A stretch of 56,733 bases of DNA from a virus (taxonomy: Duplodnaviria; Caudoviricetes): IMG/VR virus record IMGVR_UViG_3300014822_000065, positions 1-56,733 of that record; one strand, 5' to 3'. Numbering within the stretch: position 1 is the first letter of the stretch; each line of letters opens with the position of its first letter. This document shows, piece by piece, positions 9,789 through 36,079 of this stretch. Below the pieces are notes generated by a model. That model was not told the origin of the DNA. It made no database searches and saw only the letters and a program-made list of their open reading frames with translations. Both the position numbers and the translations under genes were made by a program.

Positions 9789-10733
9789 TCATGCGAGCGG
9801 GTCGATGTCACTCTCCTCCAACGCCTTGAGCTCCGCGGGTGTCAGTCCCGGCTTCATGTTGTATTCCTTACCGCGCGGGCCGGATTGCATCAGGGGCTTA
9901 CCCCTGGGAGTCTTGCCCTTTTCCATATACCACTTGACGAACGCCGCCATCTTCTCTTCCAGTGCCGGGTCTTGCTCCATGGCCTTCTCGGCCAGTTTCT
10001 GCTCCATTATTGAACGAACACTTGTGCGCCCCGTGCGCCGCTCAAGCCCGGTCTCCGGGTCAACCTCATTGGGCGGCATCTCGTCCGGATAGACCGCCGT
10101 GCCGTCAATCGTCTTCCCGTCCGCGTTGTCACGGAACCGGGCAGCCCAGTCTTCCGCGCTGAGATTTGCCTGGTCGGACTGGGGAATAGCAAGCACGCCC
10201 CCGCTGATTTCTGCCTGAATTTTCATATTCTCGCGGAACTTCTCGGGACGCCGCGCCTTCAGGAGCACTTCCAGCAGCCGGTCACTGTAGCGGCGGATTG
10301 TCAGAGGTATAGGCCGCCCATTAGCATCCAATTCCAGTTCGCCGGTGTTGGGATCACGGACGAATGCCTGAATGCCCTTGTGGACCACCGGCTCCTCATA
10401 TCCCTCCACAGCACGCCGCTGCGCTTCCTGCTCCAGGTAATCATTGCCAATTTCGAGGGCTGCGTCCCAGGCCTCATGAAATTCTGCGACCAGAGGATTT
10501 CCATCGTCATCCAGCCCTCCCATGTTGATGGTGTATCCCGGAAACCCGTCTTCGCTCCGCCGTTTCCAATAATACATCAACCAAGGCGTCACACCAACGC
10601 GACGGGCGGTTTCTGACACGTTGGCACAATCCGCCAACTCTGCAACGCAACGCTGCAGCATCTCAGGAGACCGCTTTTGATTATGGTTGGTTTTCTGCAG
10701 CTCATCGGGCTGTCGGGGCCGGTGCATTGCCAT
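9789..10733 (-). CDS. terS: Terminase small subunit (extended; ends DPLA)
   Basis: N-terminal HTH (NVSETARRVGV), LEQEAQRRAVEG, YSDRLLEVLLKARRPEKFR; upstream of terL. Confidence 0.85.
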   Translation of the reverse strand: MAMHRPRQPDELQKTNHNQKRSPEMLQRCVAELADCANVSETARRVGVTPWLMYYWKRRSEDGFPGYTINMGGLDDDGNPLVAEFHEAWDAALEIGNDYLEQEAQRRAVEGYEEPVVHKGIQAFVRDPNTGELELDANGRPIPLTIRRYSDRLLEVLLKARRPEKFRENMKIQAEISGGVLAIPQSDQANLSAEDWAARFRDNADGKTIDGTAVYPDEMPPNEVDPETGLERRTGRTSVRSIMEQKLAEKAMEQDPALEEKMAAFVKWYMEKGKTPRGKPLMQSGPRGKEYNMKPGLTPAELKALEESDIDPLA

Positions 10734-11102
10734 ATCTATTGGTTCCTTGGGCTAGTTGGTGGTATTTCTTTCATATAGCCATCTTACAGCACCGGCGTAC
10801 GCCAGCGTTGGCTTTACAGAGTGCACTCTGTAAACTTGCTAGACTGGGAGGAACTTTGGGTTCAAACCTATTTTCTAATATTTTGGGAGGGCTAATAGGC
10901 GATCAGGGCGCCTAGGTTCCAAGGGCCCCGCATGGAAAGGCTATTAGAGGACTAGACCTACGGTCTAGATCACTAGAACTTTTGCCTTCAAACTGTCCAT
11001 GCCTGTGCGAAAACAGCACAGGGGGCACTATATACAGTAGGAGCTAGCACCTACCCCCACTGTATATCGACAAAAAAAGTTTGAAAAAGGGGAAATTGTG
11101 AT

Positions 11103-11131
11103 TTTACGTTACGGTGTTTCCCTGGTAACAT
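11103..11131 (+). promoter_or_regulatory. Putative sigma70-type early promoter
   Basis: TTTACG-N17-TAACAT preceded by A-tracts; upstream of the first plus-strand gene. Confidence 0.5.
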
Positions 11132-11253
11132 ATAACTACTTGAGGGACAGAGAAACCCTTGAGTGCCCCACGTGCGAGACACATGGGGCCTAACCGGGGT
11201 CTACCCCTAACCCAACCTGCGACATTTTTGTCGCACCTAACTGGAGACTAACC

Positions 11254-11481
11254 ATGTCCACTTTTCGCAACTGCACTCATGTTGTCAAAACCCTCCTCCT
11301 CGAGGGGGAACTGTCCTACAAAGAGATAGCCAATCGAGCCCGGTACCATTTCCCCGATGCCCGCACGACTGACAAGTCCGTGGCATCCATTGCCCGTGAC
11401 ATGCGGAAGGCTGGCCTGCTTGAAAAAAGGCAGCCCAAGACTAAGCGACCTGTCCAGCTCGAACTGGACCTGGGCCTCTAA
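11254..11481 (+). CDS. Small putative DNA-binding early protein (FPxAxTT family)
   Basis: GGAGA RBS; LSYKEIA...FPDARTT helix pattern; basic tail. Confidence 0.7.
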   Translation: MSTFRNCTHVVKTLLLEGELSYKEIANRARYHFPDARTTDKSVASIARDMRKAGLLEKRQPKTKRPVQLELDLGL

Positions 11482-11543
11482 GGCCCAGAGCCTGGACCAG
11501 GACCCTGGTCCAGGCACCCACACCCAACCAAGGAGAACTAACC

Positions 11544-11852
11544 ATGTCCAACTGCATCAAAGCCATCCTCATGGAGGAACTCGAAACCTGCGTGGAGGCC
11601 CTTGTGACTTACCAGTCCGATACAACTATGCACTGGCTTGAGCGTGACAGGGAGCTGGAGACCTGGACCCAACGTCTGGCTCGGGTCAAGAAGGCCCTGT
11701 TCGAGGTCGAGAATGCCCTCCACCTGACCCAGTCGGAGTGGTCCACCCTGCGGATGCTGGTCGAGTTCCACGAGGGCTCCTACGAGGACCCAAGTGAGGC
11801 ACCGTTCAACACCCGCGACTTCGAGGCCATCCTGGACAAGCTCCGGGGCTAA
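11544..11852 (+). CDS. Hypothetical early protein
   Basis: AAGGAG RBS; 102 aa; GC-rich third positions. Confidence 0.75.
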   Translation: MSNCIKAILMEELETCVEALVTYQSDTTMHWLERDRELETWTQRLARVKKALFEVENALHLTQSEWSTLRMLVEFHEGSYEDPSEAPFNTRDFEAILDKLRG

Positions 11853-12108
11853 GGCCTCCGGGTTAACAGCGCCCAGGCTCTGAGCTTGGAGCCTGGGCAC
11901 CGGAACGGCCCGCGAGGGCCAAGCACACTTACTCAGGCGCAGCTTGGGGAGAATGGGAGGGATGCCTTGTGACACGGGTACTTGGGCAGATGCCAATCCC
12001 ACACGGCCTCCGGGTCTTTTCGTGCTGGCTGGGCAAAAGCCCTACCGGCCTCAAGCACCCAGCCACTGTCTAGCTCAAACAAAAATGGAGGGACCCGCGG
12101 TTTTTCTG

Positions 12109-12138
12109 TTTACAACCCTGCCACTTCCGTTCTATACT
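12109..12138 (+). promoter_or_regulatory. Putative sigma70 promoter
   Basis: TTTACA-N18-TATACT. Confidence 0.6.
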
Positions 12139-12212
12139 GTTATTGTGAGACAGCGACAAACGCCCTCACGTCAACCAGGCCAACAGGCCAACAACCCTAG
12201 AAAGGAACTACC

Positions 12213-12671
12213 ATGTCCACCCTTGAGAACAAAACCATCGCCGAACTGGTTAAAATCCATGATGCCATCGAGGGCGTTGAGCCCATCGGCAAGTGGAAGG
12301 GCCGCAAGGACCTGCTGATCGAGAAGGTGTCCGCCGCCATGAAGGCTGCCCGCGGCACCAAGACGATCCGCGAAGTGGCCGAGAGCTGGCTGACCACGGT
12401 CGCCTACAAGGACGAAGATGGCAAGCCGATCGGCTATCCTTACGACTACATCCTGGAGCGTGTCCTGGAGGAGTTCCCCGAGGCCAACACGACGGTCAAG
12501 TGCCTGCGCTGGTACAACACCAAGCTGAACTCGGACCCCAACATCAAGATGCCTGTGCGCCCCCGCAAAAAGGTGGTCCGCCCGGAAAAGACCGAGGACA
12601 CCTCGGAACAGGTCGAGGTCCAGGTCGAGGCCGAAAAGGAGCAGGAGCAGGTGGCCGATCCCCTGGCCTGA
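12213..12671 (+). CDS. Putative DNA-binding early protein (FPxAxTT family; ends DPLA)
   Basis: AAAGGA RBS; EEFPEANTTVKCLRWYNTKL resembles the 30263 protein. Confidence 0.8.
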   Translation: MSTLENKTIAELVKIHDAIEGVEPIGKWKGRKDLLIEKVSAAMKAARGTKTIREVAESWLTTVAYKDEDGKPIGYPYDYILERVLEEFPEANTTVKCLRWYNTKLNSDPNIKMPVRPRKKVVRPEKTEDTSEQVEVQVEAEKEQEQVADPLA

Positions 12672-12678
12672 TTGCCTG

Positions 12679-12705
12679 GTGCCCCGGGGATAATTCCCCG
12701 GGGTG
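12679..12705 (+). terminator. GC-rich hairpin after the 12213 gene
   Basis: CCCCGGGG-ATAATT-CCCCGGGG palindromic stem; no U-tract. Confidence 0.35.
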
Positions 12706-12816
12706 CAGCGACGGGCTAGCCAGGTGCTATGATGGTGACGGGCGCTCTGACGCCGGCCGAGACGGGTAAACCCTGGCTAGTCCTTCCCTGCACCCCAACC
12801 AAGTAGGAGAAAACCC

Positions 12817-13203
12817 ATGTCCCACCACGATACCTTCTATCAGAGTTTTGATGACGTGTGCAAAGCACTGGTCGACACACCTTCGCCGGACCCCAAGAGC
12901 GTCCTTAGCCGGTGCTTCAGGCTCTACTTCCGCTCCCTGAATGCTGCGGAGAAGTTCGGTTTCACCGGCGTGGGTTGCATTACCTTCGCTGAGGTCCGTC
13001 TGACTGAGTTCCAGCGTCGGATCCTGGGCCTGCGTCACAGGATTGGCGACAAGGTGACGGTCGGTCAATTCGGGGGCCTGTATGAGGCCACCATCGTTGG
13101 CTACGGCGTCGAGCACAAAGGGCACAAAGCCATCCCGGTCTACGACCTGGAAACCCCGACGGGCGACCGGCGCTGGGCCTATAAGGATCAGATCGATGCA
13201 TGA
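12817..13203 (+). CDS. Hypothetical protein with C-terminal SH3/Tudor-like beta barrel
   Basis: AGGAG RBS; RIGDKVTV...ATIVG...VYDL...RWAYKDQI pattern. Confidence 0.7.
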   Translation: MSHHDTFYQSFDDVCKALVDTPSPDPKSVLSRCFRLYFRSLNAAEKFGFTGVGCITFAEVRLTEFQRRILGLRHRIGDKVTVGQFGGLYEATIVGYGVEHKGHKAIPVYDLETPTGDRRWAYKDQIDA

Positions 13204-13342
13204 CTCCTATACCCGACACGAATGCGGGATTACCACCTTCGTGCCCACGCGCTGGTCCCGCTTCGTGGACCTGTGTGTCCTTGCCGCCGGCTACGGGGTA
13301 ATTGCCCTGAAACTCTACCTGATCTGGAGGACTTTCCAATGA
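13196..13342 (+). CDS. 48-aa predicted membrane peptide
   Basis: AAGGA RBS; overlaps both neighbours; hydrophobic C-half. Confidence 0.5.
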   Translation: MHDSYTRHECGITTFVPTRWSRFVDLCVLAAGYGVIALKLYLIWRTFQ

Positions 13343-13653
13343 CCCTGAGTGAGCTCATCGACCAGCTGACCGAACTGCAACAGGAATTCCCTGACACGGA
13401 CCCTGAAGTGATTGTCGCCTACCAGCCGAACTGGCCCATGGAGACCCAGATCACCGACGTGGTGGCTGTTGACCCTCTGACCGACTGGGATGACGAGTAC
13501 GGCCCTGAGCCGGCAGAAGACGACCCTGACCACGACGCGTGGGCCCAGGATCGGTCGCTGGCCGAGGCCAAGCCCAAGTCTGTCATCATTGGCACGGCGT
13601 GGGGCAACGAATACCTTCGCGCTGGCGGCGCAGAAGCTTTGGGCTGGCGCTAA
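13339..13653 (+). CDS. Acidic hypothetical protein (MTLSELIDQL)
   Basis: GGAGG RBS before ATG 13339; AYQPNWP motif. Confidence 0.75.
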   Translation: MTLSELIDQLTELQQEFPDTDPEVIVAYQPNWPMETQITDVVAVDPLTDWDDEYGPEPAEDDPDHDAWAQDRSLAEAKPKSVIIGTAWGNEYLRAGGAEALGWR

Positions 13654-13672
13654 CAGCATACGGAGACCTGAC

Positions 13673-14023
13673 ATGACTTACCAACGCGTGGTACCGCGGG
13701 ACCTGTTTAACGAGGGCAACCTCCTAAAGTGCCTCGGAAAGCTGACCCTGTATATTCAGGACGGCTATCTGCCCCGACTTCGACTGGTGGAGAGCTCCTT
13801 GACTTCGGGGTTCAAAGTCGAGCAGAACGAGGCCACCGGGGGTATTTTCTGCAGGAACTACCTGCTTGTTACCCCTCTCTACAATGACCGCTTGCCAGTG
13901 TTCCACGAGCGACCATTGAACTCGCGAGAGCCCTGGCCTCTGTTCCTCTACCTCGAGGACCTGGAGTTCCAAGTCTTCAATGACGATGGCTCCCTTACTG
14001 AAGAAATGGATGTCTTCAGGTAA
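13673..14023 (+). CDS. Conserved phage hypothetical protein
   Basis: GGAGA RBS; YQRVVPRDLFNEGNLLKCLG and PLNSREPWPL motifs, recalled from other phages. Confidence 0.75.
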   Translation: MTYQRVVPRDLFNEGNLLKCLGKLTLYIQDGYLPRLRLVESSLTSGFKVEQNEATGGIFCRNYLLVTPLYNDRLPVFHERPLNSREPWPLFLYLEDLEFQVFNDDGSLTEEMDVFR

Positions 14024-14031
14024 CCCTTAGC

Positions 14032-14181
14032 GCTGGTGCCAGTGCTGGTGCCAGCGCTGGTGCCAACGCTGGTGCCCTAAGTGCTGGTGCCCTAAGTGCT
14101 GGTGCCGACGCTGGTGCCCTAAGTGCTGGTGCCAACGCTGGTGCCAGTACTGGTGCCAACGCTGGTGCCAACGCTGGTGCC
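14032..14181 (+). repeat. Tandem array of GCTGGTGCC (11 exact copies plus 1 variant; 12 or 15 bp period)
   Basis: Counted directly at 14032, 14044, 14056, 14068, 14083, 14098, 14110, 14125, 14137, 14149 (variant), 14161, 14173. Confidence 0.95.
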
Positions 14182-14188
14182 CTAAGCA

Positions 14189-14326
14189 CTGATACCCAGG
14201 TAGCGTAACGCAGGGCTGGGACCCTGAATGCTGGTAACCCTAAATGCTGGTAGTGTAATGCTAGGATTGAACCCTCAATGCTGATACCCAGGTAGCGTAA
14301 CGCAAGGCTGGGACCCTGAATGCTGG
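14189..14326 (+). repeat. 46-bp direct repeat pair (1 mismatch)
   Basis: CTGATACCCAGGTAGCGTAACGCA(G/A)GGCTGGGACCCTGAATGCTGG at 14189-14234 and 14281-14326. Confidence 0.9.
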
Positions 14327-14413
14327 CGGCGCAGAATTCTACCCACGAGCAGCATTTGTGTCCAATACCCACAATAAAAAGGAAGAAGCCCTGACAAAAC
14401 AGTAGAAATGAGG

Positions 14414-14442
14414 TTTGCTTCTGGCAAACAACACAGTACAAT
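14414..14442 (+). promoter_or_regulatory. Putative sigma70 promoter
   Basis: TTTGCT-N17-TACAAT upstream of the AAAGGAG RBS. Confidence 0.55.
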
Positions 14443-14470
14443 AGAACCACATAAAAGAAAGGAGCTAACC

Positions 14471-16844: not shown

Positions 16845-19190
16845 TCAGGCAAGCGGATCGGCATTACGCTTTACCAAGTCTTCTACCGTCTCGTTAGACT
16901 GATCTGCACGGCCGCGGCGCCGATCAGGCAATGAGACAACAGCAGCCGACGTGTCGTTTATATCATCGGCCTCGTCCCATTCGGACCCTAGAACTGCTTC
17001 CTCAGCACGCTGCTGATATTCCAGCGACATTTCACGGTTGTAGACAGCGGCCTTCATCTTAGGAGACCGCTTGGCTTCCCGCTCCCGAAGCTTATTCATT
17101 ATGGCCTGATGATTGAAACGGTTTTCCCGGTCTTTAAGATCAGGCAAAGCCCATAGCACCACTCGGCCGGCGTTTGTGTGGGACTGCTTTCTGGTATTAA
17201 CAGCAGGAACCGTGTTATTGAGGAACTTCCGGGCATGGCTCCGGACATTCCGTATCCGCATCTTCTCAGGTAGGCACTCAACGAGGTCCCGCTCAGCCAC
17301 GTATTGTCCATGGAACGGAGGCAAACCGCTTTGATAACGGTGCAGCCACTCGGCATCGTAGTCCGTCCGCGCTGCCTCTCGCATCTCGTCCTTAGACTTG
17401 CTGGTCGGTGCTCGGCCCTTCCCATTGAAATTCCCGATGTCCCGCTTCTTGAGATAGTCCCAGATGATGGCATCGCCACCTTCCTTTTCGGCCCAAGTAA
17501 ACAGTCGCCGGTAGTATTCGTCTTCTTTAGGGAACGCGTCCGAGATGGCGATGGCATACCGTCGGTCGTCATCCTCAACCGGCAGGGCGTCGTCATGGTT
17601 TGTGAAGGCCAGGATCACGCAGTTGTTGGTGACATGCTGCGTGGGCATGTATTTCTCATTGATCTCAATTACAGGGTCCGTCACCATCGGCTTGAGGTGG
17701 TTCATCAGGTCCACACGACCTTTGACCATCAGCTCTTCGATAACGACCAGTTTGACATTTCGTGCCCAGCCGTTGAACTGCGATTGGATGGATGCGTTCA
17801 TAGGCCGGCCGGTATTGTGCGGGCCAAAGATGCGTTCCATCACTTGTCCGATGAAAGATTTACCTGTACCCTGCCTGCCTTTGATAACAAGTGCAAAATT
17901 GGGCTTTTCGGCCGGGTTCTGGACACACCAGGCAAGGTAATCCAGCACCATATTCCGTTCCGTCTTGTCCTCGAACATATAGGTCATGTGCTCGAGGAAG
18001 ATGGTCGGGTCACCCTCGGCAGGCTTCAGGTTACTCGGCCTCCAAATGTTATACACCTCGTCGCCATTAACAAACTCAGGCTGCTCTGGCAAGAAGTCCA
18101 TTCGCATGAACTTCCGCATGGACCGTTTAGAGGCAAAGATTTCCGAGGAGATGCTGCCCTTTTCAGCAATAAAATTATATTTGGAGTCAAAAGACTTGGT
18201 ATCAAGCATCAGCCCGTCCTTACGACGGTAAAACATTTTTGCTTGGACAATCCAGACCCACTGGTCCATGATGCCCGCATACCGTTCTTCTTGCTCACCG
18301 CTTACCGGCGGCGGGCCGTATTCTCCTTCGTCATCCGGCAGGTCCGGGTCCCCAAAGTCATGCTCCGGGGTATCCCCGCCAGGAGGCACCACGCTTGCAT
18401 AGCTGAAAGCGTTCTTGACAATCTGCCGGAGCTCTTCGTCCGACCAAGGCGGCTGGCAACGATCATTCCAATGCTCCGCCATAAGCTCATAGGCCATATC
18501 CTCGGACAGGCCCTTTTCACGAAGCACGCATGCAAGGTAAAAGGACGTTGAGTTGCCCTTCTTGCCCTCGATTGCAGGTTTGGCGTCATATTTGAGATGT
18601 TTGATCGCCCAGTCAATGTATTGCGGTTGATCTTGGTCGACGACGGCCTCTTGCTGATGCTCACGATCCGCTCTGCGACCAGCAAGATGCACAATCCATT
18701 CCGGGACTTCGGCGACTGGTATCTGGCTGCTCTCAGCCCACTCGTATTCACCGGTATCGGTGCTGGACCCAGGCGCCAGAACATATCCGCCTGCGCCACC
18801 AGAGCCCCGGGTATCAATGCCTGGGCCTAGTTGCTCAACCGTGGTTCGAGCGTTGCCGTTGAAATAGAAATGCCGGCCACCAGAAGGTGTGACAGCCATA
18901 AGAGTGCGGGGAAGCTCTCCATAGTCAAGCTCCAAAAGGTCCAGGGTTTTTTGCCCGTTCTTTCCGTGTTTCATGTCTACGTCAATGACGCAGAGACCGG
19001 ATGGCTTGGTGGCAATCCCGATATTGTCTTCGGGCCAAGTTTTCCACCAGCCCTGAATAGTTTTCTCGTCTGTGGTGGCGTCACTGCCCCACTTCACCCT
19101 CGGCTTGTTCGTAGTTCCCTTTTTAATCGGAAAAACGTGCCAGCCTCTTTTGGCATAGCTCAAAGCGAGGGAGAGTTTGGATGAACCCAT
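16845..19190 (-). CDS. Bifunctional primase-polymerase fused to an SF3-type helicase (ends DPLA)
   Basis: GWHVFPI, NIGIAT, VIDVD, TPSGGRHFYF, GYVLAPGS prim-pol motifs; PriCT-like region; Walker A GRQGTGKS, VIEE, NEKY, DDRRY; GAGGAG RBS at 19190. Confidence 0.9.
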   Translation of the reverse strand: MGSSKLSLALSYAKRGWHVFPIKKGTTNKPRVKWGSDATTDEKTIQGWWKTWPEDNIGIATKPSGLCVIDVDMKHGKNGQKTLDLLELDYGELPRTLMAVTPSGGRHFYFNGNARTTVEQLGPGIDTRGSGGAGGYVLAPGSSTDTGEYEWAESSQIPVAEVPEWIVHLAGRRADREHQQEAVVDQDQPQYIDWAIKHLKYDAKPAIEGKKGNSTSFYLACVLREKGLSEDMAYELMAEHWNDRCQPPWSDEELRQIVKNAFSYASVVPPGGDTPEHDFGDPDLPDDEGEYGPPPVSGEQEERYAGIMDQWVWIVQAKMFYRRKDGLMLDTKSFDSKYNFIAEKGSISSEIFASKRSMRKFMRMDFLPEQPEFVNGDEVYNIWRPSNLKPAEGDPTIFLEHMTYMFEDKTERNMVLDYLAWCVQNPAEKPNFALVIKGRQGTGKSFIGQVMERIFGPHNTGRPMNASIQSQFNGWARNVKLVVIEELMVKGRVDLMNHLKPMVTDPVIEINEKYMPTQHVTNNCVILAFTNHDDALPVEDDDRRYAIAISDAFPKEDEYYRRLFTWAEKEGGDAIIWDYLKKRDIGNFNGKGRAPTSKSKDEMREAARTDYDAEWLHRYQSGLPPFHGQYVAERDLVECLPEKMRIRNVRSHARKFLNNTVPAVNTRKQSHTNAGRVVLWALPDLKDRENRFNHQAIMNKLREREAKRSPKMKAAVYNREMSLEYQQRAEEAVLGSEWDEADDINDTSAAVVSLPDRRRGRADQSNETVEDLVKRNADPLA

Positions 19191-19350
19191 TGCTCTCCTC
19201 CATGGTCCGCTTAACCAGATTATCACGCAGTATTCCAGTGGAAAACCATTTTAATACAAGAACTTAGTAACGCCGGTTTTTCTCATTTAAGGTTTTTATC
19301 AATCAAGTTCTGCTGTATTAATTACATATGCACATGAAATAGGTGAGACC

Positions 19351-19747: not shown

Positions 19748-20278
19748 ATGACGAAGACCATCGATGAGCAATTGGAGAGGCTTGCCTCGGCTCAGGAGCG
19801 AACGGCCACGGCCCTGGAAGCCATTTTGGAAGCCGTGACGAATTTCCAGTTCACGCAGGCTGGTGAAATCGCGATGGCCGGCGTCAATATCGAGGAAGCG
19901 CCTGATGCCGGAGCCGACCACGAAGCTGCCCCCAAAGAAGCCACATCCGAAGAACCGGAAACGGTCGAGGAAGAACCCGAGCCCAAGGAAGAAGGAGCTG
20001 CGGAAAGAGCGACGGAAGATGAAGCAGCTGGCGAAGACGGCGACGAGGGCGACCCCCTCGGAGATGGAGAAGCTGCTGATGACCCCTACCAGCTCCCCGA
20101 GAAGCTGACCAACGACACGCTCCGCAGCTTTGCACGGGACCTGGTAGAGAAGGAAGGCAAGGCTGCGGTTTTTGAAGTTCTGGCCGACATCGGAAAGGGC
20201 TACAAGGCCGTGGGCGAAGTGTCGAAGGCTGACCTCCTGGAGGCTCACGAAAAGATGATCGCCCGCCTGCGCGGCTAA
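19748..20278 (+). CDS. Highly acidic protein of the replication module
   Basis: GAGGAG RBS; short N-helix, E/D-rich linker and small helical C-domain, a type often seen near DUF2800/DUF2815 genes. Confidence 0.75.
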   Translation: MTKTIDEQLERLASAQERTATALEAILEAVTNFQFTQAGEIAMAGVNIEEAPDAGADHEAAPKEATSEEPETVEEEPEPKEEGAAERATEDEAAGEDGDEGDPLGDGEAADDPYQLPEKLTNDTLRSFARDLVEKEGKAAVFEVLADIGKGYKAVGEVSKADLLEAHEKMIARLRG

Positions 20279-25349: not shown

Positions 25350-25462
25350 ACATTTCCCCGTTGAGTATTATCGGGATAATGTAATCGAGCGGCGCATACT
25401 GTGCCGCTACATAACAGCCATCCCACAAAGTTTTGGGATATTCAGAAGTCAAGGAGACAAAG

Positions 25463-26050
25463 ATGGCTGAGAGAATGAAAGTGGTGACCCCGCCTTTCCG
25501 TGTGAGCTTCCCCTCGGTTTTTGAGGCATCATCCTACCAGGGTGGTGATCCGAAATACTCGGTGGTGATGCTCTTCTACCCCGAAAAATTTACCGACGCC
25601 GACAAGAAAGCCTGGAAAGCCATGCAGGGGATCGCCGACGCCGCGTCCAAGGACAAGTTCAAAAAGCTCATCAAGGACTTGCCGGCCAACTTCAAGCGTC
25701 CGATCCGCGATGGCGCTGAAAAGGCGCATCTTGAAGGCTACGGTGAGGGGTGCATGTTTGCCACGGCCTCGTCGAAACAGCGCCCCGGTCTTGTTGACCG
25801 CAACAAGCAGCCCATCCTCAGCGAGGAAGACTTCTATCCCGGCTGCTGGGCGCGAGCCACGATCACGGCCTACGGCTATGACAATGTGGGCAAAGGCGTG
25901 GCTTTCGGCCTGCACAACCTGCAGAAGCTCGGAGACGATGAAAACTTCACCGGCCGCGTCGCAGCTGAGGAAGATTTTGACGACGACGCGGACCAGGTCT
26001 GGGCCGGCGCCGACATTGCTCCCTCGGAGGACGAAGACCCGCTGGGTTAA
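25463..26050 (+). CDS. ssDNA-binding protein (DUF2815 / gp2.5-like; ends DPLG)
   Basis: RVSFPSVF, KYS, RDG, FYPGCWARA, GVAFGLHNLQK motifs and an acidic tail. Confidence 0.9.
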   Translation: MAERMKVVTPPFRVSFPSVFEASSYQGGDPKYSVVMLFYPEKFTDADKKAWKAMQGIADAASKDKFKKLIKDLPANFKRPIRDGAEKAHLEGYGEGCMFATASSKQRPGLVDRNKQPILSEEDFYPGCWARATITAYGYDNVGKGVAFGLHNLQKLGDDENFTGRVAAEEDFDDDADQVWAGADIAPSEDEDPLG

Positions 26051-26163: not shown

Positions 26164-26358
26164 GGCGTTTTTAGACGACCTACCGGACCAGCCTCCATAA
26201 GCCCGGGTCGATGTGTTAACAGGGAAGGGCCTTTCTAGTGCTTAGAAAGCACGGCTCCTCCGGCAGGTCTTCTAAGAGCGCATTGAATTTCCCGATTGGG
26301 CAATAGCGCTCGGGGGGCCTGGTGTTATGGACGTGGTGCACCAGGTCCCCTTTTTTAT
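26164..26358 (+). ncRNA. Candidate structured ncRNA or polA attenuator
   Basis: 23-nt arms 26165-26187 and 26259-26281 pair at 21 of 23 positions around a three-way junction; ends in a terminator. Confidence 0.55.
26312..26358 (+). terminator. Intrinsic terminator immediately before polA
   Basis: GGGGGCCTGGTG...CACCAGGTCCCC followed by T6. Confidence 0.75.
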
Positions 26359-26369
26359 CGGGGAGAGTC

Positions 26370-28649
26370 ATGAGACATAAGGGAGTAACCTTAGATTTTG
26401 AAACGCGGAGCGTCTGTGACCTTTTGAAGGCCGGGGCATACGCTTACTCGACGCACCCCACAACCACGGTTATGTGCGCCTGCTGGTCATTCGACGAAGA
26501 GCCCATTGACGGGCCTGTTCATGAATGGCAAGCGGGGTACCCCCATCTCGGCATCGACCAAAGTGATTTTCCACAGGAACTGGCCGATCATATTGCTGCC
26601 GGCGGTCTAGTAGAAGCCCATAATGCGTTCTTTGAATGGTGCATCTATAATAACGTGTGGCGCAAGATGCTACCGGAGCTGCCTCCGCTGTCCCTCGATC
26701 AAATACGCTGCTCTGCAGCCAAAGCGGCAGCATTTGCTCTGCCTCGTGCTCTTGACAAAGCCATCGAAGCTCTCGGTCTTCCGCATAAGAAGGATATGGC
26801 AGGCTCGGCCAATATGAAAAAGCTCTCAAAGCCCCGCAAGCCGACGGCAGCGGAAAAGAAAGCTTTGAAGGCTGAAGGCAGGGACCCGGACAATATGATC
26901 TTCTGGGTCGAAGACCGAGATTTGATCCTGAGAAACACCAAGTATTGTGCCCAGGACGTCAGAGCCGAACGAGGGCTGTCGTCTGTCCTGCGAGACCTGA
27001 CGCCGAGGGAATTTGAGTTTTGGCAGATGGACCTGCGGATGAACCTCCGTGGCATTTCGTGTGACATTGAGCTGGTGCATATTGCCATCGAGCTAGCCGA
27101 GGCTGAGCAGTCCCGCTTGAATAGTGAGCTTTATGATCTGACGGACGGATATGTTCAAAAGACCACAGGGCGAATTAAGTTCAAGAAATGGATGGCTGAT
27201 AACGGCTCGCCTATTCCAAACACTCAGGGTGCTACGCTGGACCTCTTGCTTGGTCTAGACCCGGAAGACGATGAAGCGGTCGCAGAGTTAAGGCGAGAAC
27301 TTCAAGGAATTACTTTGAACGACAAGACCCGTAGGGCATGTGAGATTGTGCGGGACGGCAACAGATCGTCCCTTGCCAAATATAAGCAGATGCTCATTCA
27401 GCTTTCTGAGGGCAATCGTCTGCGGGACATGATGCTCTACTGCGGAGCTTCAAGAACCGGCCGGTGGTCTGGTTGTGGCACTCAGCCCCATAACTTTATC
27501 CGTGGATATTCGGATATTATGGAGGAAGTCTGCCAAGATATTTTGACGGCCGACCCGGAATTGCTACAGCTCCTTTACGGTGCATCGGTTCTAGAAATCT
27601 TGTCCAAAGCTACCCGGGGCGCCCTAATTGCGTCAAAGGGTAAGAAACTCGTAGTGGCAGACTTTGCCGCGATTGAAGCCCGTGTGTTACTCTGGCTGGC
27701 GGAAGCAGATGAAGCGCTCCAAGTATTCTATCGCGGAGAAGATATTTACTTGGATATGGCTTCGTCTATTTTTAAATACCCCTGTACCAATAAAGACGAT
27801 TTCCCGTTTGAACGCAGGGTTGGCAAGGCGGCAATCCTCGGTCTAGGCTATCAAATGGGCTGGGAAAAATTTGAAGAAGAATGTCGGAATAAGAATGGCA
27901 TCACGGATCAAGAGCCCAAATTCTTTAAGGACGTTGTCAGAGTTTATAGGGAAGAACGCTTTCCTGAAGTCAAGTCTTTCTGGTATGAGATGAACGAAGC
28001 TGCCATCGAGGCAGTCAAGCGTTATGACCCTAAGAAAAATGTAAAAGGCCCCCGGATTACCGTTCGCAGGATTACCTGGTTTATGTGGGGTCAGTTCTTG
28101 CATATGGAATTGCCTTCTGGCCGTCTGCTTTCCTACTTCCGCCCGATCGTCAAAGTTCGCAAGACCCTCATGTTTCCGGCCGTCAACGAGCGCGGGCATG
28201 AGTGCTCTGTGATGGTGTCAGGGCCGGCAAATATGACAGTCCAGCAAGGGCGTCGCCGAGCCATAACAATCGCGAAGACTGCAGGCAAGAAGCTCATACC
28301 CAATGGTGAGCCGAAAGAGTTCCAGAACGAGACGCTTACCTTCATGCATGAAAATTCCAAGACGCGAAAGTGGGAACGCAAAGAAACCTACGGCGGCGAG
28401 CTGGTTGAGAACGCGACTCAGGCAACCGCCCGGGACTTGATGGCCGAGGCAATGTGGCGCGTCGACCAGCATCCGGACTACGACCTGCTCCTGTCGGTTC
28501 ACGATGAAGAAATTGCAGAGATAGACGAGGATAAAATCCATGACGGCACCCTCAAAGAGTTTGAGGCACTGATGGAAGAGCTGCCGGCGTGGGCCGAAGG
28601 TTGTCCTGTTGAGGCTGAAGGCTGGATTGGCTTCAGATATAGGAAGTAG
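26370..28649 (+). CDS. polA: DNA polymerase, family A, with 3'-5' exonuclease domain
   Basis: LDFET, AHNAFFE, YCAQD exonuclease motifs; TGRWS; motif A DFAAIEAR; motif B RRVGKAAILGLGY; motif C VHDE. Confidence 0.93.
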   Translation: MRHKGVTLDFETRSVCDLLKAGAYAYSTHPTTTVMCACWSFDEEPIDGPVHEWQAGYPHLGIDQSDFPQELADHIAAGGLVEAHNAFFEWCIYNNVWRKMLPELPPLSLDQIRCSAAKAAAFALPRALDKAIEALGLPHKKDMAGSANMKKLSKPRKPTAAEKKALKAEGRDPDNMIFWVEDRDLILRNTKYCAQDVRAERGLSSVLRDLTPREFEFWQMDLRMNLRGISCDIELVHIAIELAEAEQSRLNSELYDLTDGYVQKTTGRIKFKKWMADNGSPIPNTQGATLDLLLGLDPEDDEAVAELRRELQGITLNDKTRRACEIVRDGNRSSLAKYKQMLIQLSEGNRLRDMMLYCGASRTGRWSGCGTQPHNFIRGYSDIMEEVCQDILTADPELLQLLYGASVLEILSKATRGALIASKGKKLVVADFAAIEARVLLWLAEADEALQVFYRGEDIYLDMASSIFKYPCTNKDDFPFERRVGKAAILGLGYQMGWEKFEEECRNKNGITDQEPKFFKDVVRVYREERFPEVKSFWYEMNEAAIEAVKRYDPKKNVKGPRITVRRITWFMWGQFLHMELPSGRLLSYFRPIVKVRKTLMFPAVNERGHECSVMVSGPANMTVQQGRRRAITIAKTAGKKLIPNGEPKEFQNETLTFMHENSKTRKWERKETYGGELVENATQATARDLMAEAMWRVDQHPDYDLLLSVHDEEIAEIDEDKIHDGTLKEFEALMEELPAWAEGCPVEAEGWIGFRYRK

Positions 28650-30262: not shown

Positions 30263-30721
30263 ATGAACACCATTCTGACCTATTCGCTCGGTTCGCCGGC
30301 CGCTGCTGTCACCTTCGCCCCCGCTGATGCCACCTCCGGCTCGAACGGGAAGCCCACTGCGGCCGACGCCAAGCCGAAGCCGGCCGAAGCCAAGAAGTCA
30401 AAGGAGCCGAAAGAGCCGAAGCGCGGCATCGGCACCGTGGCAATGGAGGCTATTCTGAACGGTGCTTCCAACGAGGAAGCTCTGGCGGCGGTCCGCAAGG
30501 AATTCCCGGACGCCAACACTACAAAGGCGTCGATCAACTGGTATCGGAATAAGCTGCGTAAGGACACTGCAATCTGCACCGGCGGCGCCTGGAAGGGCAA
30601 GCCCGTTCCGAACGCCCGCGAGATGGCCAAGGCTGCCAAGGCCGCGCAGGAAGGCAAGGATGCCGACAAGGCGAAGGCCGGCGACAACAAGCCGACGGCC
30701 AGCGACGATCCGACCGCCTAA
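30263..30721 (+). CDS. Lys/Ala-rich putative DNA-binding protein (FPxAxTT family; ends DPTA)
   Basis: GAGGAG RBS; KEFPDANTTKASINWYRNKL core with histone-like K/A-rich flanks. Confidence 0.75.
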   Translation: MNTILTYSLGSPAAAVTFAPADATSGSNGKPTAADAKPKPAEAKKSKEPKEPKRGIGTVAMEAILNGASNEEALAAVRKEFPDANTTKASINWYRNKLRKDTAICTGGAWKGKPVPNAREMAKAAKAAQEGKDADKAKAGDNKPTASDDPTA

Positions 30722-30756
30722 CCAGTGGTACCCTCCGCTCACGGGGCAAGGCAGGT

Positions 30757-30791: not shown

Positions 30792-30876
30792 ACGGAAGCG
30801 CGTTCTGCAAACTTACCGGTTTTCATCTCTGCTATTTTGCTGTATTCTAGTGATATAATGTGAAACGGAGAACGCC

Positions 30877-31959
30877 ATGTCTACTGAAGTTCTTGAAGCT
30901 CCGGCTCCACTCGAAATCAACGGGGTTTTCTACCAAAACGTCTATTACCAGCCTATGGGAAAAGGCATGGGGGGAGACCGCAAGGGCCTCTATGAAATCA
31001 AAGACCCGCCAAACACCGGCTGGTCGCGTGCCCTGGTTATCTGGCCTGAGGACGACGCGGAAACCCGGGCTACAAGTTCCCGCAAAAAGAAGGCGGCCAA
31101 GCGGGTTACGGTTTTCTGTCCCTATACTCTACAAGCATATCAGGTGCGGTTCACCGCCCGCGAAGTCTCGGGTCAAAAGGCGTATCGCTTTACCCCCGAA
31201 CTGATTGACCGGCTTGCAGCTCTCATTGACCGCAACTGGAAAATGTATTCGAATTTTGGGTTCCATCGCGCTTATGATGTTGCAGCCCTGGTTTTGACAC
31301 GACTGGGCAAGCCGGTTCCCAGCTATATGCGGCCGGCAGACAAAAACTTGGAGTTTACGGAGACTGAGGTTCCCAATCGCAAAGGTAAGCCAGTTGCGGA
31401 GTCTCTGCTTCGACCAGTAAATCCCTCTAGCAAGCGAGGACAGGTTTGTGCCTTCTTTATGAAGAACGGCTCCGGCTCCTTGCGCGAGGCAATGGCCGTC
31501 TTCGATATGTCCCGCTCGGGCGTCCTAACGCATCTCCACGGCCTGCACAAATATCATGGCTTGGGCTACGTCCTTCAGGGCGATATGGCTACCGTCATGT
31601 TGCCGCCGGGGTGCACTGACCCGATGGCTGACGGTGCGCAAGCCGCGGAGCACGCCAAAATTGTGGAAGCCGCCGCGGTCAAAAAAGCGGGCAAACCGTG
31701 CAAGCCTACTGTGACAGCGCTGCCAGGGAAAGGCAAGCGTCGGGAAGTTGCCCTTGCTATGGTCGAGGAAGCCGCCATTGAGGACGTTGCCAAAAAGGTC
31801 GGCTGCACTGTTAACTCCGTTCGGTCACACCTTCACGACCTGCATACAAAACACGGGTTCGGTTATGAGTTGTCTCCGGACAAGTCACGTGGTAAGCTGA
31901 TCGTGCCGGAGGGGTGGACACCGGATTATGATCCCGACAACCTTGACCCACTAGCCTGA
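30877..31959 (+). CDS. Putative regulator with two winged-HTH repeats (ends DPLA)
   Basis: Internal duplication: KRGQV...SGVLTHLHGLHKYHGLGYVL and KRREV...NSVRSHLHDLHTKHGFGYEL. Confidence 0.7.
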   Translation: MSTEVLEAPAPLEINGVFYQNVYYQPMGKGMGGDRKGLYEIKDPPNTGWSRALVIWPEDDAETRATSSRKKKAAKRVTVFCPYTLQAYQVRFTAREVSGQKAYRFTPELIDRLAALIDRNWKMYSNFGFHRAYDVAALVLTRLGKPVPSYMRPADKNLEFTETEVPNRKGKPVAESLLRPVNPSSKRGQVCAFFMKNGSGSLREAMAVFDMSRSGVLTHLHGLHKYHGLGYVLQGDMATVMLPPGCTDPMADGAQAAEHAKIVEAAAVKKAGKPCKPTVTALPGKGKRREVALAMVEEAAIEDVAKKVGCTVNSVRSHLHDLHTKHGFGYELSPDKSRGKLIVPEGWTPDYDPDNLDPLA

Positions 31960-31968
31960 GGAGCAATC

Positions 31969-33069
31969 ATGGAACTCAAGTCACCTGCAACGTGGATAGA
32001 GAAGTTCTTGGCACTTGTCCACCAGTTCAATGCTGACATCATCGGTCTGCCAATTCCTGAGGAGCCTACGCGTCTTGACGTTGAGCGCAAGAAATGGGCG
32101 TTTGCGGCCCTCGACGAAGAGCTGCAGGAGTTCCTTTCGGCTGAAACTCTGGAAGACGAAGTGGATGCCCTTCTTGATTTGGCCTATTTTGCTCTCGGCC
32201 GTGTCATCGAAATGGGCGTTGTGCCCGGAGCCGCGTTCGAGGAAGTCCATGCCGCCAATATGACCAAGCGCCGGGGCAAGCTTTCCAAGCGGAAATACTC
32301 CAAAGGCTTCGACGCCGTAAAACCTGAGGGATGGACGCCTCCGAACCTGCTTCCGTATCTGGCTCTGGATCGCCGACAAGTGCTTGCGGCATATGAGGCA
32401 GCACTGTCTGAGCAAGAGGCTGCCGAAGTCGCACAGATGCCTGAGAACGAGCCGGGGAACAATAGAAAGCCGAAGTTGCTCGTGCTCGGTCACGCTCGGC
32501 ACGGCAAAGACACCGTGGCCGAAATCCTCCAGCAGGAATACGGCTTTACCTTTACGTCCTCCTCTCTTTTCTGTGCCGAGAAGGTGATTTGGCCGGCGGT
32601 CCACAATCACGGCGATGCTCTTGATCGTCATGAAAAAGCCGGATGCCCGGGCATGTCCACGGACGACCTTCACAATGAGCTGAAGATGATGCGTGAACGG
32701 GCCTATGACGATTATGAGGCTTGCTTTAAAGATCGGGGTAACTTCCGCACGGCCTGGTTCTCCCTGATTGCCGCGTATTGCTACCCGGAAAAAGAACGCC
32801 TTGCACGGGAAATCTTCGATGCTGGCAATGATGTCTATGTGGGCATTCGCAATAGACGAGAATACTACGCGGTTGTCAATTCTGGTATTGTTGACGGCGT
32901 GATTTGGGTAGACGCCAGTGATCGCGTCAAGCCCGAAAGCTTTGGGTCCTGCACAGTCGAGCCGTGGATGTCCAACTGGATCATTGACAACAATGGAACC
33001 GTCGAAGAGCTGCACCACAATGTGCACCAACTCATGTCTTATCTTGGCTTTGAAAGGAATGAAGTATGA
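31969..33069 (+). CDS. MazG-like dNTP pyrophosphohydrolase fused to a dNMP-kinase-like P-loop domain
   Basis: N-domain EELQEF...DALLDLAYF...EVHAANMTK...KPEGW; C-domain GHARHGKDT, YVGIR..RE, IWVDAS.R, IIDNNGT. Confidence 0.85.
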   Translation: MELKSPATWIEKFLALVHQFNADIIGLPIPEEPTRLDVERKKWAFAALDEELQEFLSAETLEDEVDALLDLAYFALGRVIEMGVVPGAAFEEVHAANMTKRRGKLSKRKYSKGFDAVKPEGWTPPNLLPYLALDRRQVLAAYEAALSEQEAAEVAQMPENEPGNNRKPKLLVLGHARHGKDTVAEILQQEYGFTFTSSSLFCAEKVIWPAVHNHGDALDRHEKAGCPGMSTDDLHNELKMMRERAYDDYEACFKDRGNFRTAWFSLIAAYCYPEKERLAREIFDAGNDVYVGIRNRREYYAVVNSGIVDGVIWVDASDRVKPESFGSCTVEPWMSNWIIDNNGTVEELHHNVHQLMSYLGFERNEV

Positions 33070-33356
33070 TTACCATGATCTATGGCCCGCAGGCCAGTGG
33101 CAAAACCCGCAACAAAGAAGCCCTGGCTCGCCAGTATGCCCATACGAACATTATCGACGGCGTGACGAGACAGCGCCGGTCTCGTAAGTTCTATGACGAC
33201 AGCGGGCGGACGCATACCGAAGTCCCGGCGGATGCACTGCTCCTCACTACCATGAGCCGGCAGCAGTGCTTGTCATTCCTGGCTAAGCATGAAATCACCA
33301 ATGCCACCGTCGTGTCGATCGACGAAGCTTTGGCGGAACTGGAGGCCAACGCATGA
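33066..33356 (+). CDS. Small P-loop protein
   Basis: IYGPQASGKT Walker A; 96 aa; coupled on both sides. Confidence 0.75.
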   Translation: MITMIYGPQASGKTRNKEALARQYAHTNIIDGVTRQRRSRKFYDDSGRTHTEVPADALLLTTMSRQQCLSFLAKHEITNATVVSIDEALAELEANA

Positions 33357-34294
33357 ATACCCGGTCCTTTCATGAGGTCTACTATGACCTCCTCACTGAT
33401 TTGCTTCATCGCGGGGTGACCGAAACCAACGCTCGAACGAAGACCCAAATCAAGATGCTCCAGGGTGCCTTTTCGTTCAAGCTGGACCTCAGCAACGGCA
33501 AGCTACCGATTGCAGGTAACCGGCGCTACTTCCCGCACGTTTCTGCGGCCGAGGTTGCCTGGCAGTTCATGGGCACGCGCGATCCGTCCTTCATTCTGAA
33601 GCATGCACCGAAGCTCTGGTCGAAGTTCGTGGAGACTGAGACCGTCGAGGAGGAGGACCGCGGCAACGGGATGCGCCCCGTCGAAAAGCAGGTGCTCAAG
33701 ACTGCCTACGGCTGGCGCTGGCGTGAAGCATTTGGCCGGGATCAGCTGGCTCTTGCCGTCAAGGAGCTGCGAGACAACCCGACAAACCGCCAGCTCTGGG
33801 TTCAGGCATGGGACCCGCGCAGCGACGGCCTTGGCGGCCCGCAGCCAAAAAACATTCCCTGTCCCATTGGCTTCTCTGTCTCGCGCTTCCAAAACGACAT
33901 CCATATGAGCGTGTTCGTCCGTTCCAGTGACGTGTTCGTCGGCCTTCCCTATGACGTCATGGCTTATGGCTTGACGCTGGATGCAATCGCTGCTTCGGTG
34001 GGGTGTCGACCAGCAACGTTGCACTTTACCCTTGCCCATCCGCATCTCTACGAGCCGCACTGGAATATGGCTCGGGCGTGCACGTTGGCCAACTGGAGCG
34101 CCGGTGAATGGCGTGAGCAGAAAGAGCTCGCTGGCGCCTCGACTTCGTGGGCCAACGATGCGCAGCCCGCGCTCCCGTGCTGGGGCATTGACGACATTCT
34201 CAGGGCCCCTGACAATTATGTCAGCGTCATGAAGAACTTGGCGGGGCGCACGCGGCAGAACTCCTGGAACCCTCTGCCGGTCGTTGTGGAGTAG
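33353..34294 (+). CDS. Thymidylate synthase-family enzyme with Asp at the specificity position (predicted dCMP methylase or hydroxymethylase)
   Basis: AYGWRWR, PTNRQ, catalytic IPC (Cys170), RSSDVFVGLPYD (Asp201), HLYEPH. Confidence 0.88.
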   Translation: MNTRSFHEVYYDLLTDLLHRGVTETNARTKTQIKMLQGAFSFKLDLSNGKLPIAGNRRYFPHVSAAEVAWQFMGTRDPSFILKHAPKLWSKFVETETVEEEDRGNGMRPVEKQVLKTAYGWRWREAFGRDQLALAVKELRDNPTNRQLWVQAWDPRSDGLGGPQPKNIPCPIGFSVSRFQNDIHMSVFVRSSDVFVGLPYDVMAYGLTLDAIAASVGCRPATLHFTLAHPHLYEPHWNMARACTLANWSAGEWREQKELAGASTSWANDAQPALPCWGIDDILRAPDNYVSVMKNLAGRTRQNSWNPLPVVVE

Positions 34295-34317
34295 AACACG
34301 GCTTATGGGGAAGCTAA

Positions 34318-34785
34318 ATGGACACATCTGGAAATAATACCTCTCACTGGGACGCAAGGTTCATGGAGCTGGCTCTTGTTGCGCGGTCTTGGACCAAGGG
34401 CTTAGGCGCTGGCGTGGATCGCGGCGTCGGGGCCTGCATCGTCTCTCCGAGCCGTCACCAGTTCTCCCTCGGCTACGCAGGTTTCCCGCGTGGCCTCCAG
34501 GACGAGGCTGCGCGGCTGCAGGAGCCCGAATACCGTATGTATCACACCGTCCATGCGGAGCTTAACGCCATTCTCAATGCCCGCTGCTCGGTGGAAGGCT
34601 GGACAATCTATGTTACAGAAGCCCCGTGTCACGATTGCGCCAATGCCATTGTGCAGGCCGGTATCAAACGAGCGGTAACCGGAGCACCCCGGCAGGACTC
34701 CAGTTGGTATCGCTCTCAACTTGAAGGCCGTGAGACCATGCGGGAAGCAGGCCTCATCGTCGATACTTGGGAGAAGCCCCTATGA
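34318..34785 (+). CDS. dCMP deaminase
   Basis: VGAC, HAELNAI and PCHDC zinc motifs, IVQAGIKR. Confidence 0.9.
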   Translation: MDTSGNNTSHWDARFMELALVARSWTKGLGAGVDRGVGACIVSPSRHQFSLGYAGFPRGLQDEAARLQEPEYRMYHTVHAELNAILNARCSVEGWTIYVTEAPCHDCANAIVQAGIKRAVTGAPRQDSSWYRSQLEGRETMREAGLIVDTWEKPL

Positions 34786-35297
34786 AACTCATCATGGCGG
34801 TCAGCAAAGACGGGTTTGTAGCCCGTGGGTCCGACGATGATATGACTTGGACTGGACCGATCGACAAGGCGGTATTCAAACTGCTGACAAGCACTAGCGA
34901 CGTTCTTGCCGTATCGGCCAAGACCTTGCAGTATATGCCGAATACGCTCCCCGGGCGCGGCAAGCTCTATGCCCTGTCGACCGATCCGCGGCGCGGGATC
35001 GCTCTGGAAGACTTTGCGGGCATGTTCCCCGACGCTTGGTTGCTGGGCGGTCAAGAGCTGGGCCTGTATGCAATGAAAAACGGGTTCGTGAGCAAAGCCT
35101 ACATTTGCCGGGTCCTCGACAAGGAGCTGGGTATTGGCAATCCCAACGCGATCGACGATCAACTGACGGGTTATCTTGCCCGCCGGCGCTACTCCAAGGG
35201 CCGCGGCTCTTGGTGGGACGAAGCGCTGCGGGTGAAGATCGATCAGTCGCTGGTCGAAGTTTGGGAACGCGGGAGCGCCGTTGCAGATGACGTCTAA
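34782..35297 (+). CDS. Dihydrofolate reductase-like protein
   Basis: MKLIMAVSKDGFVA...MTW...DKAVFKLLT, LPGR and WLLGG follow the DHFR pattern. Confidence 0.75.
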   Translation: MKLIMAVSKDGFVARGSDDDMTWTGPIDKAVFKLLTSTSDVLAVSAKTLQYMPNTLPGRGKLYALSTDPRRGIALEDFAGMFPDAWLLGGQELGLYAMKNGFVSKAYICRVLDKELGIGNPNAIDDQLTGYLARRRYSKGRGSWWDEALRVKIDQSLVEVWERGSAVADDV

Positions 35298-35757
35298 GAC
35301 CGCCGAGAAAAACCTGTGGTATCGAATGCGGGAGGCTATGAAGGTCTTTCGCGCCGACGTTCATTACACCCGCATTGAAAACTCTATTTCGGACGGCTTT
35401 CCCGACGTAGAAGTTAGCCTTATGTGGGAAAAGGTCAATTACTCTGCAACGTTTGAGTTGAAGACCACGCATCGACCAGCGCATCTTGGAACCAACGTGG
35501 ACGCTTCCCATATTCGCATGGGTCAAATCCGCTGGCTAAAGAAGCGGTGGGCAGTCCGGGGTTCCGCCTGGATACTGATCCAGGTAGGATCAAAGAGAGA
35601 CCTCGCTTGTTACCTGATCCCAGGCTATCTTGCCGAGGAAGCGCAACAGGGCAAACCGGAGAGCTGGTATATCGCCAACTCTGTCTGTGACCCAAATGAC
35701 CCACTGGACCGCATCGTGCGGATTGGCTGCACGTGGAGATGGCTGGATGAAAATTGA
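35287..35757 (+). CDS. PD-(D/E)XK nuclease (VRR-NUC / Holliday junction resolvase-like)
   Basis: RIEN...GFPD...FELK...GQIRW motif. Confidence 0.8.
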   Translation: MTSKTAEKNLWYRMREAMKVFRADVHYTRIENSISDGFPDVEVSLMWEKVNYSATFELKTTHRPAHLGTNVDASHIRMGQIRWLKKRWAVRGSAWILIQVGSKRDLACYLIPGYLAEEAQQGKPESWYIANSVCDPNDPLDRIVRIGCTWRWLDEN

Positions 35758-36079
35758 AACCGCTATTGCAGGAGCCTCGTTTCGTGAAGAAGGGGTTGAT
35801 ATTGTTTTCGCGCTGAAAGTGGGGCAACGCTTTCGCTTGGAAGCTGAGCCGTCTAACCCATATGACCCAAATGCGGTTAAAGTATTGGTGGATGATTTCG
35901 TTTACGGGCGGAGAAAACCACGGACTTACCATCTCGGCTATGTTCCGCGTAAGTGGTCCGGCACCGTAGCTGCAGCCCTCAGAAATACCCGACTCCATGT
36001 CTGGGCGGTCAAGGAGAACGATTTGTGGGGAACATTTTCCGTTATTTGGGAAGATGCCTCTAAAGACCCACTGGCCTAA
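35747..36079 (+). CDS. HIRAN-domain protein (ends DPLA)
   Basis: IAGASFR, LEAEPSNPYDPNAVKV, LGYVP; GGAGA RBS. Confidence 0.85.
   Translation: MKIETAIAGASFREEGVDIVFALKVGQRFRLEAEPSNPYDPNAVKVLVDDFVYGRRKPRTYHLGYVPRKWSGTVAAALRNTRLHVWAVKENDLWGTFSVIWEDASKDPLA

Follow-up and report, generated by a model that had tools for sequence, protein, structure and literature searches.

What makes unrelated proteins of a single phage end in the same four residues is the question raised by the IMG/VR virus record IMGVR_UViG_3300014822_000065 (Duplodnaviria; Caudoviricetes), whose 56,733 bases (hereafter, the window) form a complete or nearly complete contig of a marine phage. Among the 67 proteins called in the window, by a codon-usage gene caller with twelve long genes as training set, five close with DPLA directly before the stop codon, and two more close with the variants DPLG and DPTA, the former on SSB, the protein that binds single-stranded DNA. 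The analysis described here leads to a simple description of this shared terminus: DPLA is the tip of a flexible acidic tail found across a family of T7-type phage SSBs, and this SSB tip is borne by other proteins of the same phage, in which it probably acts as a docking tip for one common receptor.

The five proteins with an exact DPLA end are the small terminase subunit TerS (9789-10733, minus strand; phrog_4044, E = 5.8e-31), which ends in ...ESDIDPLA with the tag and stop at 9789-9803; a small protein made of a three-helix domain and a linker (12213-12671, plus strand; ...QVADPLA, tag and stop 12657-12671); a primase-helicase of the Prim-Pol/PriCT/DUF5906 (D5-type) kind according to Pfam and PHROGs (16845-19226, minus strand; ...KRNADPLA, 16845-16859); a phrog_11422 protein with two helix-turn-helix (HTH)-like repeats (30877-31959, plus strand; E = 2.9e-72; ...DNLDPLA, 31945-31959); and a HIRAN-domain protein of 110 residues counted from its ATG (35747-36079, plus strand; PF08797, E = 9.8e-12; ...ASKDPLA, 36065-36079). 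DPLG closes the gp2.5/Enc34-type SSB (25433-26050 with a probable start at 25463, plus strand; ...EDEDPLG, 26036-26050), and DPTA closes a small protein encoded just downstream of the SNF2 helicase gene (30263-30721, plus strand; ...SDDPTA, 30707-30721). All seven termini had been claimed in the original prediction and are present at the positions and on the strands given there, and no other D-P-[LT]-[AG] terminus occurs among the 450 six-frame open reading frames of at least 40 residues in the window.

Could such a set of ends be due to chance, or to a feature of the DNA, for instance a common 3' gene end that recombination has spread, or some signal with which the stop codon overlaps? Each terminal four-residue string other than DPLA occurs once among the 67 calls, the number of DPLA termini expected from the pooled C-terminal composition is 0.002, and DPLA is found six times in 16,985 residues, five of them at an extreme C-terminus. 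When the last 12 residues were shuffled 20,000 times, at most two proteins came to share a terminal string (in 718 shuffles) and three or more never did. In favor of a common origin of some ends, the 12213 and 30263 proteins are paralogues, alignable and with PHROGs 38698, 34102 and 17205 in common, and hence one pair is shared by descent; the "seven proteins" of the original prediction are thus seven real termini in six independent terminally tagged families. When the five DPLA tags are compared in pairs, though, the third codon position is the same in 13 of 40 comparisons, the DNA flanking the tags is unrelated between genes, and the protein sequence upstream of them is unrelated among the bearers. 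Since both the synonymous positions and the flanks differ, selection is acting on the peptide, as had been proposed. A chance or DNA-level origin is ruled out by the shuffles and the unlike codons and flanks, and the maintenance of the tag across deep divergence speaks against it too.

This maintenance is seen for TerS, HIRAN and the primase-helicase, on whose homologues the tag is invariant although the linkers drift. Among 46 TerS matches, the 34 close ones end in DPLA (33) or DPLR (one), and the 12 weaker ones, mostly shorter (172-281 residues), have neither the extension nor the tag. In an alignment of 34 full-length TerS sequences (33 matches of at least 250 residues plus the window TerS) the last four columns are conserved at 1.00, 1.00, 1.00 and 0.97, against a mean of about 0.65 over the preceding 26. 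The 25 HIRAN homologues end in DPL (18), DPLA (five), DPF (one) or DLF (one), which indicates that the final residue is dispensable. To follow the tails more widely we used 63 IMG/VR loci (L numbers), each centred on the SSB gene, in which DPL[AE] closes ten primase-helicase homologues; two of these, in L017 and L065, are only 22-25% identical and end in EFDPLA. In L035 a HIRAN homologue with 28% identity ends in NDPTA and the adjoining SSB in SDPTA. In the Roseobacter phage RDJL3 (about 77-81% identical to the window, with conserved gene order and 82 annotated coding sequences) all seven orthologues are tagged, four with DPLA, two with DPTA and one with DPL. Purifying selection acts on the tip only, and the termini of related phages, which the original prediction had singled out for comparison, keep the tag on the homologues of TerS, HIRAN, the primase-helicase and SSB. 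Directly upstream of the HIRAN gene lies a phrog_2165 ("DNA helicase") protein (35281-35757, plus strand) with an internal NDPLD at residue 140, 15 residues from its end.

The SSB connects the tag to a known family. It matches PF10991 (E = 1.5e-44) and phrog_112, "Gp2.5-like" (E = 9e-50), and the paper on the SSB of phage Enc34 (ORF6) groups the PF10991-type family with gp2.5 (PMC5686142). Its last 25 residues include 10 Asp or Glu, and are placed at a pLDDT (predicted local distance difference test) of about 55-57 in the predicted structure. The 120 SSB homologues listed are 56-90% identical, and in 94 of them an acidic run is followed by a terminal DP[LMTIVF] with at most two further residues, among them DPLA (33), DPMA (17), DPTA (14) and DPLG (13); minority tips among the same 120 are [FL]L[NSDG] (12) and IPF (three), besides GGF and others. 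Tagged SSBs were present in 25 of the 63 loci, tagged members of the 30218 family in 15, tagged primase-helicases in 10 and tagged phrog_11422 proteins in six, together with one homologue each of HIRAN, of a DUF2800 nuclease (DLDPLA) and of an exonuclease.

Because the three players of the T7 system are all present in the phage, namely an SSB of the gp2.5 type, a primase-helicase that shares its tip and an adjoining family A polymerase, DP[LT][AG] can be read as a docking tip. In T7, the gp5 polymerase has basic patches on which the tails of gp2.5 and gp4 dock, with roles in loading, exchange and SSB displacement (PMC12339929, PMC12593628), and the Enc34 SSB paper describes the gp2.5 tail likewise (PMC5686142). 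From this analogy we infer that the tip binds a partner, and which partner that may be. SSB, the primase-helicase, TerS, HIRAN, the two-HTH protein, the two small paralogues and two internal linkers would all plug into one receptor, which would evolve together with the tail; the replication machinery would retain SSB, the primase-helicase and accessory factors and allow their exchange, packaging proteins would be drawn to replicating DNA, and packaging and regulation would reach that DNA by way of HIRAN (a domain of the fork-remodelling type), the probable regulator with two HTH-like repeats, TerS and a head-region protein. The analogues named in the original prediction (the bacterial SSB C-terminus, clamp-binding tails and degrons) left out the closest one, the acidic tails of T7 gp2.5 and gp4.

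The motif, its conservation and its place on disordered ends are seen directly, and so is its change of class alongside the SSB tail. In another lineage (L031), the SSB ends in EDFLD, TerS (phrog_4044) in ESYLD, the phrog_11422 protein in DGWLD, a phrog_4212 protein in DDDFLD and a 30218-family protein in QDPLD; as SSB, TerS and the phrog_11422 protein all carry [FYW]-L-D there, the tails change together. Similarly, the primase-helicase of L029 ends in TSDLE and its SSB in ASDLE, a DUF2800 nuclease in L052 ends in NDDWD alongside an SSB with GDWDE, an HNH nuclease in L061 in DENGF alongside DEGGF, and a 30218-family protein in L040 in SEGGFD alongside DEDGGF. In L037 and L038 the last residue of the 30263 homologues tracks that of the SSB (DPLD). 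Taken together, these cases suggest a proposal to which we give slightly less than an even chance: phages with T7-type SSBs may use a lineage-specific plug-and-socket code, in which the SSB tip is copied onto, or into flexible linkers of, proteins working at replicating DNA (primase-helicase, nucleases, the HIRAN fork remodeller, regulators, TerS and a head-region protein), one socket couples replication, regulation and packaging, and all plugs follow its drift (DPLA, [FYW]LD, GGF, DDF, DWD).

Docking on a common receptor is favored by counts of shared tails, but several other observations point the other way. The counts come from 43 loci, non-redundant at 80% SSB identity; L003 and L004, whose contigs are those of L009 and L011, were left aside, as were loci in which no SSB of at least 150 residues was called. 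A second DP tail was found in eight of 13 loci with a DP-type SSB versus four of 30 others (Fisher p = 0.0025, with shared ancestry ignored), and in loci with a non-DP SSB the locus's own SSB tail was shared (at least three of four residues) in six of 30 cases versus 27 of 840 for foreign tails, again ignoring shared ancestry. A tree-aware version of the DP comparison retained three supported independent pairs, about one in the same direction and none in the opposite one, which is too few for power. Farther out, in five genomes whose SSB is of the DP type, TerS ends in DPLS once and in GPLA once and is untagged three times, and the SNF2 helicase is tagged in none of 32 loci. With regard to T7, the tip DP[LT][AG] has no aromatic (Phe) anchor, and the primase-helicase combines Prim-Pol with a D5-type helicase and is not of the gp4 type. 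Among the 14 SSB-core columns most associated with tail class, none moves with it over eight supported pairs, a weak test; and a search of the 10 kb around the SSB gene turned up no gene family restricted to loci of the DP type (best p = 0.058). The candidate receptor suggested by analogy with T7, the family A DNA polymerase PolA (26322-28649, plus strand; PF00476), adjoins the SSB gene in 47 loci and is tagged in none of them, which speaks for it as the receptor; its C-terminus, though, is structurally fixed, with RYRK in at least 90% of sequences, and owing to this fixed end the lack of a tag on PolA says little. We regard docking on one common receptor as the probable explanation nonetheless, and within it PolA as the first candidate, at well under an even chance, with some other phage protein as an unlikely one. 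A co-fold of PolA (residues 15-775) with SSB (11-205) scored 0.00 against a mark of 0.32, a result that leaves binding undecided either way. Sequence alone could not place the T7 front basic patch on the window PolA: the 60 structures listed, of 72 matched, do not include T7 gp5, and the matches are to Pol I-type structures over about 120 residues.

The same results bear on two variants in which the socket lies elsewhere. The receptor might be SSB itself, the tip binding its OB-fold or concave sheet and the tagged proteins being clients that are brought to DNA coated with SSB or to a replication compartment rich in it. No other protein bears the tip as constantly as SSB does, and it is simplest for client tails to follow the SSB class if plug and socket are on one protein; the C-terminus of Enc34 ORF6 lies in the concave sheet of the neighboring molecule in the crystal (PMC5686142), and the T7 tail competes with single-stranded DNA for the gp2.5 groove. 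The finding that no lineage-specific extra gene accompanies SSB within 10 kb is also in line with this arrangement. However, none of the core columns just mentioned tracks tail class in that weak test, whose eight pairs are drawn from 20 tail-class changes on the SSB tree, and in the monomer model the SSB tail has a pLDDT of about 55 and is therefore undocked in cis. We consider SSB the second candidate, rather unlikely as the receptor but less so than a host protein. In the latter case the tip would recruit a host replication, repair or transcription factor, as DDDIPF-type tips of phage SSBs would recruit the partners of the host SSB. Three of the 120 SSB homologues listed do end in IPF, the bacterial SSB tip, so that the position is usable for host partners, and the missing DP-specific phage gene near SSB would be expected as well. 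Nevertheless, 20 changes of tail class are easier to reconcile with a fast-evolving phage socket than with conserved host hubs, and for Rhodobacter, which is related to the probable host group, the SSB tip is reported to be DLDDEIPF (PMC13490951), from which it follows that the tag is no copy of a host tip of that kind; a host receptor is improbable.

It is also conceivable that no common receptor exists and that each acidic tail folds onto the DNA-binding surface of its own protein as an inhibitory DNA mimic. Every bearer binds or handles DNA, and the Enc34 work attributes a modulation of DNA binding to the acidic tails of both gp2.5 and Enc34 ORF6 (PMC5686142). An identical four-residue tip on folds as unrelated as TerS, Prim-Pol, HIRAN, the OB-fold and HTH repeats, with classes switching in step, would be unexpected for such mimics, which we hold to be a decidedly improbable explanation.

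Internal copies of the motif allow docking to be separated from degradation, the two functions that the original prediction had named side by side. An uncharacterised protein (19748-20278, plus strand) carries EGDPLGDG within an acidic low-complexity linker (20051-20062), and this copy is retained in all eight homologues although the linker varies, and is doubled in L012. A head-region protein (2096-2752, minus strand; phrog_17843), encoded two genes after the major head protein gene, carries DEDDPLAEG in an acidic linker (2411-2422), which reads DEGDPLAEG in RDJL3 despite a linker of different length and sequence. The earlier statement that no virion protein ends this way consequently stands for termini, whereas a conserved internal copy does occur in this head-region protein; the bearers amount to nine, seven with a terminal tag and two with an internal copy. 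The conservation of these copies means that the motif is independent of a free carboxyl end. A C-terminal degron, by which a protease of the host or the phage would clear early proteins at a set time, would suit a short conserved peptide whose end is small and non-polar and whose bearers are early and middle proteins; but the internal copies are conserved, the last position is variable (A, G, E, T, D) or lacking, the tag is borne mainly by the abundant SSB, and other lineages place typical SSB-tip classes (DDF, GGF, IPF) on the same proteins. The tag thus departs from ssrA-like degrons, in which the C-terminus is free and the terminal residues are fixed, and degradation is very unlikely to be its function. 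The docking half of the earlier proposal agrees with the invariant tag, with its identity as an SSB-family tip and with the class switching on the same families.

Of the two small paralogues, the 30263 protein consists of a three-helix domain, a long helix, a low-complexity linker and DPTA; in its predicted structure the domain (56-100) has a pLDDT above 90 and the tail one of 52-57, and a fold search against the PDB gave no significant match (best E = 0.68, generic HTH-like). All 15 of its homologues in the loci have a DP-type end. The orthologues in L005, L006, L007, L008, L011 and L012 start with a hydrophobic, signal-peptide-like stretch (MKSIIALTAGILPLIAYAAPDA...), which is missing from distant homologues and weak in the window; such a start is odd on a protein with a cytoplasmic docking tail. 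Relatives also contain small DP-tailed proteins without a homologue in the window: L004 13533-14018 (minus strand), L008 407-811, L020 7859-8419, L018 6036-6314 and L027 7056-7397 (all plus strand), one of which has a weak match to a head-protease PHROG. These extra proteins imply that the tagged set is gained and lost between close phages.

The phrog_11422 protein has a weak Sigma70_r4 match under the Pfam cut-off. Six of its 12 orthologues in the loci are tagged. Among 150 representatives of the family, a DPLA end is present on the closest one only, 17 end in W[LG]x preceded by an acidic run, and many others stop directly after the second repeat and are tail-less. Single-repeat homologues often finish in ...LPxGxxDP[FL][AE] right behind the domain (nine of the 150 representatives). 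At the end of the first repeat of the window protein there is a candidate third copy of the motif, CTDPMADG (DPMA, residue 248), which reads CDDPLAD in L007 and CTDPLAD in L008 and is missing in L005, L006 and L011.

As to the genomic setting, the genes for TerS, TerL, portal, scaffold, major head protein and tail lie on the minus strand and run from about 10.7 kb to 0.5 kb, early and replication genes occupy 11-41 kb, and the remainder holds tail and gene-transfer-agent-like genes. A major tail/structural protein gene is divided between the contig ends (2-547 and 55758-56732, both on the minus strand), and its 182 and 324 codons add up to 506, the length of the RDJL3 orthologue, indicating that the contig is a permuted whole genome; when the end is joined directly to the start the gene is out of frame (two bases over), so that the junction is inexact. 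The class II (B12-dependent) ribonucleotide reductase (38070-41246, plus strand) has 1058 residues as compared to 756 in RDJL3. Given that the roughly 300 extra residues match intein-splicing sequences weakly and contain, at residues 444-506, a LAGLIDADG domain, the window enzyme probably harbors an intein that is missing from RDJL3.

The original prediction knew of no description of this tag, and our literature searches agree: outside supplements, subscription journals and unindexed papers, which they did not cover, they returned no account of the tag or of a phage SSB tip shared proteome-wide, and protein termini are not a topic of the RDJLphi1 genome paper. If one socket does read the tail, the tag would provide a rule to predict fork-acting proteins among those of unassigned function, such as the two small paralogues, the 19748 protein and the head-region protein. 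Its presence on TerS points to a physical link between replication and packaging, a link which, to our knowledge, is known in outline only, for T4. The T7 two-protein paradigm would be widened to a proteome-wide code in many uncultured phages, and tail classes could mark matching replication modules in mosaic phage genomes.

Among known systems, T4 offers a precedent for one peptide shared by several proteins: gp43, gp33 and gp55 have C-terminal clamp-binding peptides in common, which are ligands of the gp45 clamp, and in this way replication and late-transcription proteins share one plug for one hub and the processes are coupled. Unlike in T4, the polymerase of the window phage bears no tag, and the motif is unlike the clamp-binding consensus, which is of the Q-L-x-L-F type; none of the seven tails has a Gln or Leu-x-Leu-Phe pattern. 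No sliding clamp was annotated in general scans of the window proteins or in the RDJL3 annotation, no search having been aimed at clamps. The bacterial SSB C-terminus (DDDIPF type), a hub for SSB-interacting proteins, resembles the tails described here in being acidic and disordered with a short conserved tip, which there serves protein-protein docking; it differs in that the tip here is DPLG on a gp2.5-type SSB, the tip reported for Rhodobacter being DLDDEIPF. Moreover, bacterial SSB presents one tail to many sockets, whereas here one tail is found on many proteins, which implies few sockets. The likeness to T7 extends to an SSB of the gp2.5 fold family (PF10991, phrog_112) with a disordered acidic tail, to a tip shared by the primase-helicase (DPLA) and SSB (DPLG), and to a family A polymerase, here encoded next to SSB. 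In T7, however, only two of 56 coding sequences end in such tails (gp2.5 in EDGDF and gp4 in NDTDF), while the nine bearers here include TerS, HIRAN, the two-HTH protein and the head-region protein, with two copies internal. The pattern is real and well supported, and through a mechanism that we infer by analogy it would extend the shared tails of the T7 type to packaging, fork-remodelling and regulatory proteins.

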